The notes under the pieces: generated by a model
What the model was told of the DNA's origin: nothing
Seen by the model: only the letters and a program-made list of their open reading frames with translations
Database searches by the model: none
Assembly (NCBI GenBank): GCA_016700375.1
Contig: CP065016.1
Coordinates: 660,001 to 692,000 of the forward strand
DNA length: 32,000 nt
Direction: 5' to 3'
Origin: Candidatus Saccharimonadota bacterium
Lineage (GTDB): Bacteria > Patescibacteriota > Saccharimonadia > Saccharimonadales > UBA4665
Shown here: positions 17,697 through 26,274 of the stretch, in pieces
How the letters are laid out: every line of letters begins with the position of its first letter
Position numbering within the stretch: the first letter of the stretch is position 1
Position numbers and translations under genes: made by a program

Positions 17697-17718
17697 TGGT
17701 GCGGGTGGGGGGAGTCGA
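17697..17718 (-). other. orphan tRNA-Gly 3' fragment (positions 55-76 including CCA)
   Basis: Minus strand TCGACTCCCCCCACCCGCACCA is identical to the last 22 nt of the intact tRNA-Gly 133 nt upstream. Confidence 0.7.
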
Positions 17719-17814
17719 CCTTTCACCTTCGGTGAAACCCTGCTCCCATGGTCGCAGGGCAAGGGCGGCTTAGCGCCACTGGCGCTCGCGTTCGCCTCAC
17801 CCAGCCCAGAACCA

Positions 17815-17845
17815 TACAAAAAACCTTTCCTTTCGGAAAGGCCTT
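17815..17845 (-). terminator. intrinsic terminator after tRNA-Gly
   Basis: Minus strand reads CCTTTCC GAAA GGAAAGG TTTTTTGT. Confidence 0.75.
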
Positions 17846-17850
17846 TTGCC

Positions 17851-17925: not shown

Positions 17926-18138
17926 TTGCCTGTTATCATAACATAAATGGGGGTTCTACAGGAGTCGACTCACCTTCGGTGGTCACTTTCAGCGACCCCG
18001 ACGCTTCCCTATTGAAAGCGCAGCTTTCATCGAAAGGCGTCCTTGCAATGTGCCACTGGCATATTTCACCCGAAACTTCACGGCAGCAAGCCAGCTTGCT
18101 CCGGAAGATTTCCTTGCGACCCGCCACGGGCGGGTCTC

Positions 18139-18191
18139 ACCCCGTCTCAGCCTTCACGAAGGCTACATAATAGCCGTTATACGACACCCGC
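18139..18191 (-). pseudogene. truncated tRNA-Gly-like 5' fragment (positions 1 to ~53) with the anticodon replaced
   Basis: Identical to the intact tRNA-Gly except that CCC is replaced by CGTG, giving an 8-nt loop TTCGTGAA. It diverges inside the T-stem after GACGGGG. No 3' acceptor strand follows. Confidence 0.7.
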
Positions 18192-18314: not shown

Positions 18315-18358
18315 CGAAATTCCAATCCAAGGAGCGTAAGCGACTGAATGGAATTTCG
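18315..18358 (-). repeat. conserved hairpin (repeat family R2, copy 1)
   Basis: Minus strand reads CGAAATTCCA TTCAGTCGCTTACGCTCCTTGGAT TGGAATTTCG. See copy 2 at 20425-20467. Confidence 0.6.
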
Positions 18359-18441
18359 TGAGGAGGAACTGTGCGAAGCCCCACCTGACTTTTGGCCACT
18401 TGATTGCCGAAAGTCAGGTGAGGTTGTAACATATTCCGACG

Positions 18442-19889: not shown

Positions 19890-19975
19890 GCGCCCGACCG
19901 GATGAACGCTTTGCTACTGCCCGCGTCGCATGCTCGGAGCGAGCTCCTGCGCGTGCTCCTTGTCATCGAACCGGC
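19890..19975 (-). pseudogene. tRNA-Asp 3' portion (T-arm plus acceptor 3' strand) interrupted in the T-loop by 62 nt
   Basis: Minus strand reads GCCGGTTCGA (19975-19966) + 62 nt (19965-19904) + ATCCGGTCGGGCGC (19903-19890). Deleting the 62 nt recreates GCCGGTTCGAATCCGGTCGGGCGC of the intact gene. No CCA. Confidence 0.6.
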
Positions 19976-20030
19976 AATCTACGTTCGCTGCGCTCACTAA
20001 TCGCCGGCTCAAACCGACGTGCAGACCACT

Positions 20031-20061
20031 AAAAAAGCCCCACCTTTGGTGAGACTTTTTT
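20031..20061 (-). terminator. intrinsic terminator after tRNA-Asp
   Basis: Minus strand reads GTCTCACC AAA GGTGGGGC TTTTTTAG. Confidence 0.7.
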
Positions 20062-20063
20062 AG

Positions 20064-20140
20064 TGGCGCGCCCGACCGGATTCGAACCGGCGATCTCCTC
20101 CGTGACAGGGAGGCGTGATAGGCCTCTTCACTACGGGCGC
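20064..20140 (-). tRNA. tRNA-Asp (anticodon GTC)
   Basis: GCGCCCG TA GTGA AGAGGCCTA TCAC G CCTCC CTGTCAC GGAGG AGATC GCCGG TTCGAAT CCGGT CGGGCGC G CCA. Confidence 0.9.
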
Positions 20141-20215
20141 ATACAGGTGTAATTGTACCAGATTATTTTGTTAATTAGGTCGGCCCGACTAGGACAAACG
20201 CCCTCCTTTGTCGGG

Positions 20216-20277
20216 CTCCTCCCTGCGGTACTCATCAAAAACATGCAAGCATCTTTTTGACTCCGTTCCTCGTCCGC
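20216..20277 (-). repeat. 62-nt conserved module E, copy 1 (fused to the T-loop of the truncated tRNA-Asp-like copy)
   Basis: 57/62 identical to 23488-23549. Contains an 11-bp hairpin. Confidence 0.8.
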
Positions 20278-20336
20278 CGAACCGGCGATCTCCTCCGGAT
20301 CAAACGAGGCGTGATAGGCCTCTTCACTACGGGCGC
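20278..20336 (-). pseudogene. truncated tRNA-Asp-like 5' fragment (positions 1-57) with an altered anticodon arm
   Basis: Identical to tRNA-Asp except that CCCTGTCA is replaced by CGTTTGATC (one nt longer). Identity ends after the TTCG of the T-loop, where module E begins. Confidence 0.7.
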
Positions 20337-23330: not shown

Positions 23331-23386
23331 GTATATGTATTCTAGCGGGGTCCCCATGAAATCACCAGATTTCATGGGGTGCATTT

Positions 23387-23420
23387 GACGGAGTTATTCT
23401 ATCCGTTGAACTATCGGGAC
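23387..23420 (-). pseudogene. truncated tRNA-Arg-like 5' fragment (positions 1-34)
   Basis: The 34 nt GTCCCGATAGTTCAACGGATAGAATAACTCCGTC are identical to 23605-23572. Identity ends after the first anticodon base. A 12-bp hairpin follows (23352-23379). Confidence 0.65.
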
Positions 23421-23487
23421 ACACCATAATCTTATCATAGCACCGGTTCGCTTCCAGCTACGCCGGGATACGCGCGCTTACAGCGCA

Positions 23488-23549
23488 CTCCTCCCTGCGG
23501 TACTCGTCAAATACATGCAAGCATGTATTTGATTCCGTTCCTCGTCCGC
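23488..23549 (-). repeat. 62-nt conserved module E, copy 2
   Basis: See 20216-20277. It starts directly after the TTCG of the truncated tRNA. Confidence 0.8.
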
Positions 23550-23605
23550 CGAACCAACATCTGCTCCTTAGGACGGAGTTATTCTATCCGTTGAACTATC
23601 GGGAC
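23550..23605 (-). pseudogene. truncated tRNA-Arg(CCT)-like 5' fragment (positions 1-57)
   Basis: GTCCCGA TA GTTC AACGGATA GAAT A ACTCC GTCCTAA GGAGC AGATG TTGG TTCG, then module E. About 80% identical to the intact tRNA-Arg. No TCGGGAC 3' acceptor strand occurs anywhere nearby. TATAAT lies just upstream (about 23625). Confidence 0.7.
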
Positions 23606-23638
23606 TTGTGAGCACAATAAGTGCTCAATTATAAAGGG

Positions 23639-24222: not shown

Positions 24223-25140
24223 ATGAAGCGTATGCAGTTTATCAAAGCTAAAACAGATTTTTTAGAATATCTTGAGATTGAACAAAACCGTTCGCAGAAA
24301 ACGATTCGCAATTACGACCACTACCTAACGCGCCTTGCCGACTACGCCGGTGACATCACCGTGCAGGATATAGACCAAGAACTGGTACGTAAATGGCGAT
24401 TGTGGCTGAACCGACTTGGTACCAATGTAAACGATGAGCTACAAAAAACAACGCTAAATTACCACCTCATTGCCCTGCGTAGCTTTCTAAAATTTTGTCA
24501 TAAACGCGAAATGAAGTGCATGGCACCAGATACCATAGAGCTATCCCGGACGAAACGACCCCAAGTGACATTCCTAAATGAAGAAGAACTCCAGCGTCTA
24601 TTTGACCAGCCCGATTCGAACACAGTGGCCGGACTACGCGATAGAGCAATCCTGGAGCTCCTCTTTAGCTCAGGCCTGCGCGTGTCTGAACTTGTAGGGC
24701 TCGACCGCGATCACATTAACCTCAAACGCCGCGAGTTCATGGTACGGGGAAAAGGCCAAAAAGACCGGCCCATTTTCATTAGCGCAGTGGCAGCCGACTG
24801 GCTTCAGCAGTATCTCGACAAGCGTACCGATACAACAAAACCGCTTTTTATGCGCTACGGTGGCCGGAAAACTGTTGACCGCAGCGGTAATTTCCATCGC
24901 CTCACCGCTCGAAGCGTCCAGCGCCTTGTCGCGCACTACGCCCTACTCGCCGGCATCACCAAACACGTCAGCCCACACACCATGCGCCACTCATTTGCAA
25001 CAAATTTGCTCATGAACGGTGCCGATCTGCGCTCAGTTCAAGCCATGCTCGGCCACAGCAACATCTCTACGACGCAAATCTACACCCACGTCACCGACCC
25101 ACACCTAAAAGCCGTCCACGAAAAATTCCACCATATGTAA
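24223..25140 (+). CDS. tyrosine site-specific recombinase, XerC/XerD-like
   Basis: SAM-like N-terminal domain, RVSEL, HTMRHSFAT, LGHSNISTTQIYTHV. Confidence 0.85.
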   Translation: MKRMQFIKAKTDFLEYLEIEQNRSQKTIRNYDHYLTRLADYAGDITVQDIDQELVRKWRLWLNRLGTNVNDELQKTTLNYHLIALRSFLKFCHKREMKCMAPDTIELSRTKRPQVTFLNEEELQRLFDQPDSNTVAGLRDRAILELLFSSGLRVSELVGLDRDHINLKRREFMVRGKGQKDRPIFISAVAADWLQQYLDKRTDTTKPLFMRYGGRKTVDRSGNFHRLTARSVQRLVAHYALLAGITKHVSPHTMRHSFATNLLMNGADLRSVQAMLGHSNISTTQIYTHVTDPHLKAVHEKFHHM

Positions 25141-25251
25141 TATTTCCTTAATCCGAACTTGGCATAACCAGAGGCTATGAATCATCAAAGCCTTCATCGC
25201 GACAAGACAATACAGGAATGGCCTAGCCCACGAGATTCCCACAGAAAAGTG

Positions 25252-26274
25252 CTATGGGCAGAAAGACGCGTACAGTCCCGGCGCAGCCGTAAATCTTTTG
25301 CACACGCTGGATTGGGATTGTATTGCGCCGGGGGGTAATGTCGGGTCTGGCGTGTTTAACCGAGCGCGAACTTTTATTCTACGCAAAACATCAATCGCCT
25401 TACCGGTGGAGTCTATGCTTGCTTGTGCATTTTTGAAATCAAGGGATGTGGCACCATTAAATGCATCAATCGTGACTGTCTCTGCGTCACGATAGTACAT
25501 GGTAAACCGCGCGTTATAATTTGCTACCTGGGAACCAGCACTCAGTGGAATTGATGCCGTACAAGATGCGGTTGCAGCAACACAGGGCGAAGGTATAATA
25601 TACGCGTTCGATGAACCGATGCTATACGAGGCCGGCCCGCCACCAGCTCTTGTAGGTTGCAAGAAAAATGTAGAAGTCAAGGCATTAAGAGATGCAGCGC
25701 CGCCCGAAAAGTTAAACGGTGCTTTGACGATATCCACCCGAAGTAACCCATAATTACAGCTGTAGCTTATGGACGATCTGAATTGACCGCTTCCAAGAGG
25801 ACAACCGGCAGTTGATGTCGGACCACCTTGGGGCTGGGACCACTTGAATGTTAATCTCGTTGTAGCTACTGGATTACCGCCAGCATCAACTGTATCAAAA
25901 GGGAAAACCGTCGAGGACATAGCATTCAGGCCAGTGATAATATCTGGCACAAATGGATCGACAAGAACACAGGTGTATTTGACGGATGGGTTTACGCTCA
26001 ATGATTGTGCGGGGAAAACAACACCGTCACAAATACTCTGTTCTGCAGTTGGACTCGTTCGAAGCACTTTGAGCGCCTCGTTTACGCCAGACTCTGCAGC
26101 ATAGAATGCTTGAGTACTCAACTGGCGATCAAGCGACTCCCTACGGTTACGATTCGAGACCTGCGTAAAGCCAATAACGATGAGCGTGATGACAAGCATC
26201 ATGATGATGGTAATCATGAACGAAACGAGTCCTTTATCGTCCTTTATCACTAAGCTACTCATGGTTACTTTCAT
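25252..26274 (-). CDS. PilX-like pilus assembly protein / large minor pilin
   Basis: N-terminal hydrophobic helix followed by QAFYAAESGVNEAL (PilX-N pattern). Last gene of the pilin cluster. Confidence 0.6.
   Translation of the reverse strand: MKVTMSSLVIKDDKGLVSFMITIIMMLVITLIVIGFTQVSNRNRRESLDRQLSTQAFYAAESGVNEALKVLRTSPTAEQSICDGVVFPAQSLSVNPSVKYTCVLVDPFVPDIITGLNAMSSTVFPFDTVDAGGNPVATTRLTFKWSQPQGGPTSTAGCPLGSGQFRSSISYSCNYGLLRVDIVKAPFNFSGGAASLNALTSTFFLQPTRAGGGPASYSIGSSNAYIIPSPCVAATASCTASIPLSAGSQVANYNARFTMYYRDAETVTIDAFNGATSLDFKNAQASIDSTGKAIDVLRRIKVRARLNTPDPTLPPGAIQSQSSVCKRFTAAPGLYASFCP

Follow-up and report, generated by a model that had tools for sequence, protein, structure and literature searches.

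Structured cassettes interrupt redundant tRNA gene copies at the T-loop in Saccharimonadales

The tRNA-Arg locus

The stretch of DNA analysed here (the window: 32,000 nucleotides of a Candidatus Saccharimonadota bacterium, GenBank assembly GCA_016700375.1, contig CP065016.1, positions 660,001 to 692,000) carries six ordinary tRNA genes detected by ARAGORN, three of which (Gly, Asp and Arg) have extra tRNA 5' parts upstream, with extra 3' parts downstream in the case of Gly and Asp. An earlier note on this DNA had drawn attention to two truncated tRNA-Arg heads, A1 and A2, lying upstream of tRNA-Arg(CCU), and to a 62-nt module, E, which is fused to A1 and recurs at the tRNA-Asp locus. We find that E is the conserved core of a family of cassettes of about 80-90 nt, made up of two segments (S1 and S2) and two hairpins (P2 and hp2), which reside in redundant tRNA copies and nearly always beside a functional tRNA gene. 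The family is described here by its anatomy and membership, its sense-strand structure and covariation, its conservation in situ and its distribution over many loci. The parts of the Arg locus, all on the minus strand, are as follows in the order in which they are read downstream of the ndk stop codon:

23628..23633, minus strand: TATAAT box of the ancestral tRNA-Arg promoter, with a 7-bp leader hairpin (23626-23610); read directly
23550..23605, minus strand: A1, nt 1-57 of a duplicate tRNA-Arg(CCU) of the A-type allele, ending GGTTCG; by sequence comparison
23488..23549, minus strand: E core, with S1 (23549-23534), hairpin P2 (23533-23506) and S2 (23505-23488); 57/62 identical to 20277-20216
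23471..23487, minus strand: hp2, the second cassette hairpin (TGCGC-TGTAA-GCGCG-CG), found in all family members
23443..23470, minus strand: decayed 3' part of the interrupted tRNA-Arg copy, homologous to ATTTCTAGCTCGCTGGAAGCGAACCAG of L008 and to the L013 and L023 versions
23421..23442, minus strand: spacer with a secondary promoter-like box, TGnTATGATAAGAT; conserved in L008, L013 and L023 directly upstream of the intact tRNA-Arg
23387..23420, minus strand: A2, nt 1-34 of an A-type tRNA-Arg that was once intact, ending as a stump in the anticodon loop
23331..23386, minus strand: block M, a 12-bp hairpin and a TAGAAT promoter-like box, part of a 146-nt identity with L023
23256..23330, minus strand: intact tRNA-Arg(CCU) of the N-type allele, the functional gene (ARAGORN; Rfam tRNA, 55.3 bits)

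A1 is identical over 56 nt to the intact tRNA-Arg of three related loci (L008, L013 and L023; loci outside the window are cited by such numbers), and shares only 87.5% identity with the window's own tRNA-Arg. Its junction with E lies where the earlier note had placed it, after the TTCG of the T-loop, and the same position is used at the Asp locus, where E (20277-20216) is joined after the GGTTCG of a tRNA-Asp-like head (20336-20278). The two copies of E, which stand on unrelated tRNA sequences and share this one T-loop junction, as expected of the discrete module that had been postulated, are identical at 57 of 62 positions, far above chance (blastn-short E = 1e-19), and the Arg copy (23488-23549) scores 99.8 bits with the covariance model described below. 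All five differences fall in a single hairpin (module positions 17, 23, 25, 38 and 44 on the minus strand). They include the compensatory change that had been reported, a T-A pair in one copy and an A-T pair in the other, which is located at positions 23/38; position 25 contributes C-G in one copy and G.G in the other, and positions 17/44 A.C and G-U.

A2 matches the first 34 nt of A1 exactly (34/34) and leads into a 12-bp hairpin (CCCCATGAAATC/GATTTCATGGGG), both as the earlier note had it, and direct reading confirms its statement that the acceptor sequence TCGGGAC does not occur near the Arg heads. The TATAAT box that it had seen upstream of A1 is present as well; an identical box and leader hairpin precede the single tRNA-Arg of L014 and the E-bearing copy of L008. 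A simple promoter scan gave no full -35/-10 match at this ancestral promoter. Within the decayed 3' part, which includes CGAACC, the complement of GGTTCG, the T-stem 3' strand CCGGC can still pair with GTTGG by way of G-U pairs. A small open reading frame (ORF) behind a Shine-Dalgarno-like run, AGGGAGGAG, was considered and rejected, as direct reading found no start codon at usable spacing.

Distribution and layout of the E family

To find further members, which the earlier note had named as the test of its idea, 185,579 species genomes were searched with a gapped pattern, metagenomes with a related gapped pattern, and viral contigs as well; these patterns demanded exact S1 and S2 words. The species genomes yielded seven true copies, all from Saccharimonadales/Saccharibacteria, and 12 chance matches in GC-rich genomes; the metagenomes yielded 29 true copies, and the full pattern had no match in viral contigs. 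There are thus 36 copies besides the two of the window, 38 in all, of which 34 are distinct, and a covariance model built from these 34 scores every one of them at 77-113 bits. The outcome that would have refuted the earlier note, a lack of other copies or of conservation, is clearly contradicted by these numbers and by the strong covariation described below.

All 38 copies lie in a T-loop context, in tRNA orientation, after a GGTTCG-like start and between T-loop nt 57 and 58. Their carriers represent about 16 tRNA species: Arg(CCU), Asp, Leu(UAA, CAG, CAA), Pro(GGG, CGG, UGG), Ser(GGA, GCU, UGA), Met, Gln, His, Cys and Lys. Every copy has the same layout, namely S1 ((G)CGGACGAGGAACGGAG), P2, S2 ((Y)GAGUACCGCAGGRAGGAG), hp2, CGAU, the last two T-loop nucleotides and the T-stem 3' strand, so that A58 is in effect swapped for about 80-90 nt. 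The T-stem pairs around the insert in most copies.

Two types of unit can be distinguished. The upstream type (about seven, including both window copies) consists of a promoter, a full head, the cassette, a decayed 3' part, a new promoter and the intact tRNA gene. In the downstream type (about 22), the intact tRNA gene is followed by a bidirectional terminator hairpin, a reduced 5' part, the cassette, a perfect 3' part with CCA and a second terminator, the distance from the tRNA end to S1 being a constant 70-90 nt. An intact tRNA gene adjoins the E copy in 25 of 29 informative cases, while four units persist without one. The carrier copy is always defective, and in no case is an E-bearing gene an intact sole copy.

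The tRNA segment that is repeated differs between these units. In the A1 and Asp copies it is the head, the 3' part being decayed; in many downstream units it is the 3' part, which matches the neighbouring tRNA over 18-19 nt including CCA and so forms direct repeats. The tRNA 5' part is hardly or not at all recognisable in most downstream units. In about a third of them the reduced 5' part is instead a reverse complement of the 3' third of the tRNA, giving a sense-antisense-sense arrangement (z > 5 in five units, very clear in L042); we do not extend this description to every downstream unit, as it is not significant outside that third. Six loci (L018, L025, L033, L045, L048 and L042) contain antisense copies of the tRNA 3' part.

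Some loci hold tandem arrays. Two E copies lie about 130 nt apart after tRNA-Cys in L044 (1-54 and 81-196), cassettes of the related families F1 and then F2 follow tRNA-Asp in L015 (6950-6593), and L002 (3632-3960) has three tRNA-Leu 3' parts. A weak E-like core was also seen in a 260-kb IMG/VR contig (L063, 5232-5318), where GGACGAGGAACGGAG and AGTACCGGAG, separated by 7 nt, are enclosed by a perfect 9-bp closing helix. It scores 18 bits with the covariance model (E = 0.014), has no tRNA nearby and no Rfam match, and may be a chance resemblance or a distant relative of E. Apart from this look-alike, searches of viral and phage collections with S1 or S2 alone gave chance matches.

Structure and conservation

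Pairing statistics were computed on the model-fitted alignment, with column shuffles and slid pairing partners as controls. Paired cells amount to 96%, compared with 75% in shuffles and 26-57% with slid partners, and double-change cells number 161 against 42 in shuffles. Compensatory changes are found in 19 of 24 pairs, including all seven of hp2, and RNAalifold run on a MAFFT alignment agrees with this result. The structure is also strand-specific: P2 contains 31 G:U pairs when read on the tRNA-sense strand and four on the antisense strand, U:G is the commonest pair at one hp2 position, and the P2 loops are mainly G(CUUG)C or G(CUCG)C.

Variation is confined to P2 and hp2. S1 and S2 are purine-rich, and the five S1:S2 pairs that we propose never vary, so that the core fold receives no covariation support and alternative pairings fit equally well. 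In the F2 family one S1:S2 position does vary, being A-U in L015 and L042 and G-C in L008. By eye, G-AGUA-C of S2 and G-GAA-C of S1 look S-turn-like, with the bulged-G signature between G-C pairs known from the sarcin-ricin loop or loop E, and GGA/GA beside P2 resembles tandem G.A pairs. The likeness differs from the sarcin-ricin case in that the E columns are invariant and other pairings suit them as well, and since these columns never vary, neither a kink-turn nor an S-turn assignment was adopted.

The cassette has been retained at orthologous positions. The arrangement tRNA-Leu(UAA)-E-metG is shared by L002, L036 and L031, whose methionyl-tRNA synthetases (MetRS) show 81% and 64% amino-acid identity; P2 is 50-68% identical among these orthologues and S1 and S2 are unchanged. 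Likewise, S1 and S2 are identical in the Asp-linked E of the window, L013 and L014, where the neighbouring spacer cannot be aligned. These orthologues indicate that the conservation of E does not come solely from the way in which copies were ascertained. P2 sequences cluster by genome lineage and hp2 sequences by locus, a pattern pointing to gene conversion among paralogous copies of the cassette.

History of the Arg locus

Syntenic relatives found in the genome scan allow the history of the Arg locus to be traced by comparison of the interval between ndk and pfkB. L014 has a single, cassette-free tRNA-Arg in this interval, the empty state of the site. L008 has the promoter, a full tRNA-Arg copy with E after GGTTCG, the spacer with a new promoter-like box and an intact tRNA-Arg with the sequence of A1. 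After hp2, L008 reads ATTTCTAGCTCG...ACCAG, a worn form of the 3' end of the intact gene (ATTCCAGCTCGGGATACCAG), from which it follows that A1 comes from a duplicate tRNA gene interrupted in the T-loop, of which it forms the 5' part. By this comparison the 3' strand of the A1 copy was not missing originally and appears as the decayed segment 23470-23443; A1 and E together read as an interrupted tRNA-Arg(CCU) duplicate at the ancestral promoter, and the Asp-like head with its E as the same thing at tRNA-Asp. The TGnTATGATAAGAT box would have served as the promoter of the copy that was formerly intact.

An intact A-type tRNA-Arg is present in L008, L013 and L023, and in L008 and L013 the full gene occupies the position of A2. 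L013 has kept this gene and lost the head and 5' half of its Arg-linked E. The segment 23420-23275 of the window (the A2 stump, block M and the new allele as far as GGTTCG; 146 nt) is 100% identical in L023 (metagenome contig WBZP01168885.1), where it sits upstream of E and where the intact tRNA-Arg is a chimera of both alleles; the Arg locus has therefore undergone repeated recombination. Judging from these alignments, A2 has nothing to do with the action of E and is the stump left when the intact copy gave way to another tRNA-Arg allele that brought a hairpin and a promoter of its own, block M having arrived together with that allele. The two heads are accordingly not independent truncated units, as the earlier note had supposed. 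At this locus the breaks lie where the anticodon hairpin and the T hairpin have their tips. A look-up of near-identical strains by exact protein matches to ndk and pfkB returned one 1.2-kb contig only.

A XerC/D-family tyrosine recombinase gene (24223-25140) lies outside the units, beyond ndk and about 0.6 kb from the Arg locus, and is syntenic in relatives whatever the state of the Arg cassette. Together with the next gene (24231-26205) it is 98% identical to positions 6026-8000 of L013, in the midst of flanking genes that are 70-82% identical, which points to a recent recombination tract between lineages.

The Asp and Gly loci

The earlier note did not describe hp2, the decayed 3' remnants, or the head and tail fragments at tRNA-Gly and tRNA-Asp. 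The corresponding parts of the window are:

20278..20336, minus strand: tRNA-Asp duplicate, nt 1-58, with a rewritten anticodon loop of 8 nt; 31 + 20 nt match tRNA-Asp, the difference lying in the loop alone
20178..20277, minus strand: second E cassette, with E (20277-20216; 95.9 bits), hp2 (20215-20199) and a decayed Asp 3' part (20198-20178)
20064..20140, minus strand: intact tRNA-Asp(GUC) (ARAGORN, Rfam)
19890..20063, minus strand: Asp downstream unit, with a terminator hairpin (20063-20026), a reduced Asp 5' part (20025-19966), cassette F1 (19965-19904) and a 3' part (19903-19890)
17949..18191, minus strand: tRNA-Gly duplicate unit, with a 5' part (18191-18140) with an 8-nt anticodon loop, cassette G (18139-17969) and a decayed 3' part (17968-17949)
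17697..17850, minus strand: Gly downstream unit, with a terminator hairpin (17850-17812), a structured insert (17811-17720) and a perfect tRNA 3' part with CCA (17719-17697)

The Asp-linked E orthologues of L013 and L014 share with the window a derived 3' part, CGG(G/A)CCGA(C/A)C. In the Asp downstream unit the 5' part lacks the anticodon arm, F1 occupies 62 nt in the T-loop and the tRNA 3' part is ATCCGGTCGGGCGC. Orthologous units carry different cassettes (F3 in L013, F1 in L015 and F2 in L008). Between the window and L013 identity is 97.5% as far as the GGTTCG of this unit, after which unrelated cassettes follow. The F2 family shows recognisable homology to E, whose model picks it up weakly. 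Cassette G is 171 nt long, contains multiple hairpins and joins just after the T-stem 5' strand, about 4 nt upstream of the E junction. A relative of G, 75% identical, lies upstream of tRNA-Arg(GCG) in L042, a gene surrounded by this G and by an F2-family cassette that is in part 90% identical to the F1 of the window. Both Gly units are absent in L008.

The two Gly-linked inserts (17811-17720 and 18139-17969) are alike at their ends only (TGAG... and ...CACCGAAGGTGA), and both are dense in short GC hairpins with GNRA- or UNCG-like loops. Full cassette-bearing heads that are otherwise identical to the neighbouring tRNA have a rewritten anticodon loop longer by 1 nt (8 nt) at 20305-20298 (Asp) and 18158-18151 (Gly) of the window and at about 545-535 of L042 (Arg-GCG). 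Directly after the truncated Asp 3' part (19890) comes a gene pair for a Phd/YefM antitoxin and a PIN-domain toxin (19805-19132, minus strand) with a near-consensus promoter (19840-19812, TTGACA-17-TACAAT); as the pair is missing from the syntenic site of L008, it was inserted at the tRNA-Asp fragment. A conserved hairpin module, AAAACTCCAATCCAAGGAGCGAAGCGGATGAATGGAGTTTTGAGAGGAG, recurs in several genomes, 70-120 nt ahead of tRNA loci that bear cassettes (window 20466-20418 on the minus strand and, inverted, 18317-18365; L013 1489-1439, L014 367-318, L038 4150-4199, L041 2633-2683), in both orientations like a repetitive extragenic palindromic (REP)-type repeat. Hairpins resembling it are also found after ndk (L013, L014) and after tRNA-Gly (L008).

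Searches and comparison with known RNAs and elements

A search of the window and of four related loci (L042, L045, L018 and L015) against Rfam 15 recognised only tRNAs; no family covers E, F or G, even at E-value cut-offs of 10 for the window and 1 for the four loci. ARAGORN found no transfer-messenger RNA (tmRNA), and the sole tmRNA_permuted match had 15 bits (E = 6.4) over the Gly 3' region. No match to E was found in phages and plasmids, where only the tRNA-Arg head matched phage tRNA genes. An all-against-all BLASTP comparison of 937 ORFs from the window and 37 loci revealed recurrent neighbours only as synteny among close relatives; genes for an integrase, transposase or reverse transcriptase, beside which the earlier note had suggested looking for E, do not recur in the neighbourhood of the units, and none of the 1-14-kb loci around the copies contains a transposase. 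No terminal inverted repeats (TIRs) or target duplications were seen at the junctions, and an inverted-repeat scan lists none there. The only sequences in the window complementary to S1 or S2 are on the opposite strand of E itself. Full-text searching of the literature gave no description of such elements. E is a real and conserved feature that matches no known element class and is apparently restricted to Saccharimonadales.

A tRNA-derived head joined to a common body recalls the tRNA-derived short interspersed elements (SINEs) of eukaryotes, a likeness that the earlier note had raised. In the present units the head has been copied locally from the gene next to it and does not belong to a moving unit. 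There is also no reverse transcriptase nearby, no A-rich, poly-A or long interspersed element (LINE)-like tail and no target-site duplication, and the 3' parts run into flanking sequence or terminators instead of ending at CCA, so that the SINE interpretation is unsupported. Self-cleaving ribozymes (hammerhead, hairpin, twister, pistol) gave no core match by eye, in agreement with Rfam. Comparable too are tmRNA, the Y-RNA-like YrlA and mascRNA, in which an acceptor/T-arm scaffold without decoding arm bears an extra domain and may undergo tRNA-like processing. The present units differ from these in having an insertion in the T-loop and not a replaced anticodon arm, in being many, paralogous and derived from their neighbours, and in escaping both ARAGORN and Rfam.

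Nature and spread of the cassettes

We favour, with a confidence that falls just short of even, the view that E and its relatives constitute a new cassette family which is structured on the sense strand and probably acts as small RNAs, with redundant tRNA copies as carriers. For transcription, partner and mode of spread, we infer the following scheme. Transcription of the cassette would run in tRNA sense, starting at the tRNA promoter or reaching it by read-through; tRNA promoters precede the upstream-type units, and terminators the downstream-type units. The RNA would fold as a helix junction whose invariant non-Watson-Crick core, possibly an S-turn or tandem G.A, would bind a conserved partner, while the tRNA-derived flanks would provide transcription, processing and a closing helix. 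In the carrier copy the decoding parts have been put out of use through rewriting of the anticodon loop to 8 nt or deletion of the anticodon arm. Spread would be rare and occur at the DNA level, with the universally conserved T-arm sequence GGTTCG | A-N-N-CC serving as a portable microhomology for copy-choice or gene conversion, and an insertion would survive only if its target were duplicated in the same event.

Several observations weigh against this view. In about 22 of the 29 informative cases the copy is flanked on both sides by a strong bidirectional terminator hairpin and no promoter can be seen, an odd situation for an RNA gene. Presence is patchy in close relatives, L008 being without the Asp-linked E, L014 without the Arg-linked E, and L013 having its Arg-linked E deleted in part. 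As the search patterns required exact words, the family-wide invariance of S1 and S2 is partly an effect of ascertainment, a bias that spares only the comparisons between orthologues. Finally, G:T pairs and stable small loops are tolerated in hairpins of single-stranded DNA (ssDNA), so that the sense-strand bias cannot separate RNA from sense-strand DNA.

The alternative to which we give most room, rather unlikely in our estimation, is that the cassettes are non-autonomous selfish ssDNA elements inserted at hairpin tips by a recombinase or transposase encoded elsewhere, S1 and S2 being the sites that the enzyme recognises and not the core of an RNA; the tRNA sense strand would become accessible in the lagging-strand template or within an R-loop and fold into T-arm and anticodon-arm hairpins. 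Position 57/58 is indeed the tip of the T-arm hairpin, and the A2 break at 34/35 the tip of the anticodon hairpin; a single precise junction is used in many tRNA genes, and a sense-strand-only structure suits a single active strand. Presence or absence and swaps of cassettes between close relatives, the greater similarity of copies within a genome than to their orthologues, the transcriptionally quiet position of most copies between terminators, and the inverted copies of the tRNA 3' third in some units, a fold-back signature, all fit as well. IS1111-attC elements and class C group II introns target DNA hairpins, and IS91 targets GTTC; together with IS200/IS605 and the miniature derivatives of these they share with the cassettes strand-specific folded ends, insertion into a structured site that leaves no target duplication, and GTTC at the junction. 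They are set apart by the lack, here, of any cognate enzyme recurring near the loci, by dissimilar hairpins (P2 is unlike hp2, whereas the ends of IS200/IS605 elements resemble each other), by confinement to T-loops, no copy having been found outside that context, and by long vertical retention: orthologues with an invariant core and compensated stems have been kept in streamlined genomes of about 1 Mb. Copies were absent, too, from viral contigs, phages and plasmids. On the same grounds (no TIRs or target duplication, P2 unlike hp2, 38/38 copies in T-loops) the end of a known insertion sequence (IS) or miniature inverted-repeat transposable element (MITE), including IS200/IS605 miniatures, was rejected; this identity, under which the earlier note would have withdrawn its proposal, finds no support in Rfam, in phages and plasmids or in a nearby transposase.

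Attachment-site architecture, which the earlier note had also suggested, agrees only partly with the data, as direct repeats of tRNA 3' ends do occur. Repeats of tRNA parts beside an intact gene, breakpoints in the anticodon loop and T-loop, where integrase crossovers classically lie, and arrays of 3' parts, sometimes tandem (three in L002, two units after tRNA-Asp in L015), are what inert scars of larger integrations (attL/attR) would leave, with E as a surviving element end; the Phd/PIN cassette directly after the truncated Asp 3' part, absent in L008, and the XerC/D-family gene near the Arg locus could be quoted in favour. Against this, only 150-200 nt separate the repeats in more than 20 independent loci, with no integrase or cargo in any, many different tRNAs are involved, and the Xer-like gene is syntenic regardless of the cassette. 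Such a strand-specific, covarying junction structure, with a core kept invariant and stems compensated across orthologues, is unlike a scar. For att repeats of tRNA and tmRNA genes, the ssrA-targeting islands of Dehalococcoides (PMC3146451) offer an example; we consider the scar explanation very improbable. Regulators or decoys specific to single tRNAs, with E as a sensor and the 3' or antisense segments pairing or competing with the cognate tRNA or its 3'-end enzymes, are improbable too, if not to that degree. The 18-19-nt neighbour-identical 3' parts with CCA in many downstream units, the antisense copies in the six loci named above and the constant 70-90 nt from tRNA end to S1 would be explained. 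The upstream-type units (A1 and Asp in the window, L008, L014, L039) do not fit, having decayed 3' parts and no antisense copy, nor do the four units without a neighbouring tRNA, and for about half of the downstream units the antisense complementarity fails to reach significance. Last, archaeal tRNAs may have introns in the T-loop and split tRNA genes exist, position 57/58 is a gap in the T-loop motif that tolerates insertions, the T-stem still pairs around most inserts, and heads and 3' parts lie apart, as in those archaeal genes; E could on this basis be an intron, or divide split-tRNA halves, a functional tRNA resulting from its removal. This can hardly be the case: the host is bacterial, the carrier is a decaying duplicate defective in every copy (3' part decayed, or anticodon arm deleted or rewritten), and an intact copy adjoins in 25/29. 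A T-loop intron was rejected since no bulge-helix-bulge could be drawn by eye at the junctions and Rfam holds no match to a group I/II or other intron family, and a split tRNA since no complementarity exists between the sequences that flank heads and 3' parts.

Significance

Returning to the cassettes as structured units on tRNA copies, a broader proposal seems possible, and we make it tentatively, as one that may well be wrong. E, F1-F3 and G would form an unrecognised class of the Candidate Phyla Radiation (CPR) that colonises T-loops (at 57/58, or 53/54 for G), guided by structure or microhomology, without protein genes and with duplication of part of the target, the sense-strand fold being functional either as a partnered RNA or as a self-propagating DNA structure.

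If this is true, folded cassettes inside spare tRNA copies would be a new genome feature of the CPR. They would reshape tRNA loci, leaving duplicates, stumps and replaced alleles, and would be kept in genomes of about 1 Mb that normally shed useless DNA. E would offer a candidate RNA motif with an invariant non-canonical core, and its junction a possible case of site-specific insertion, enzyme-free or by an unknown enzyme, at the T-loop, which has been called the most conserved sequence in biology. For annotation, the warning is that tRNA "fragments" in these genomes may be structured units and not noise. The tRNA genes of these bacteria would then provide exchangeable non-coding cassettes both with sites to land in and with a scaffold for expression.

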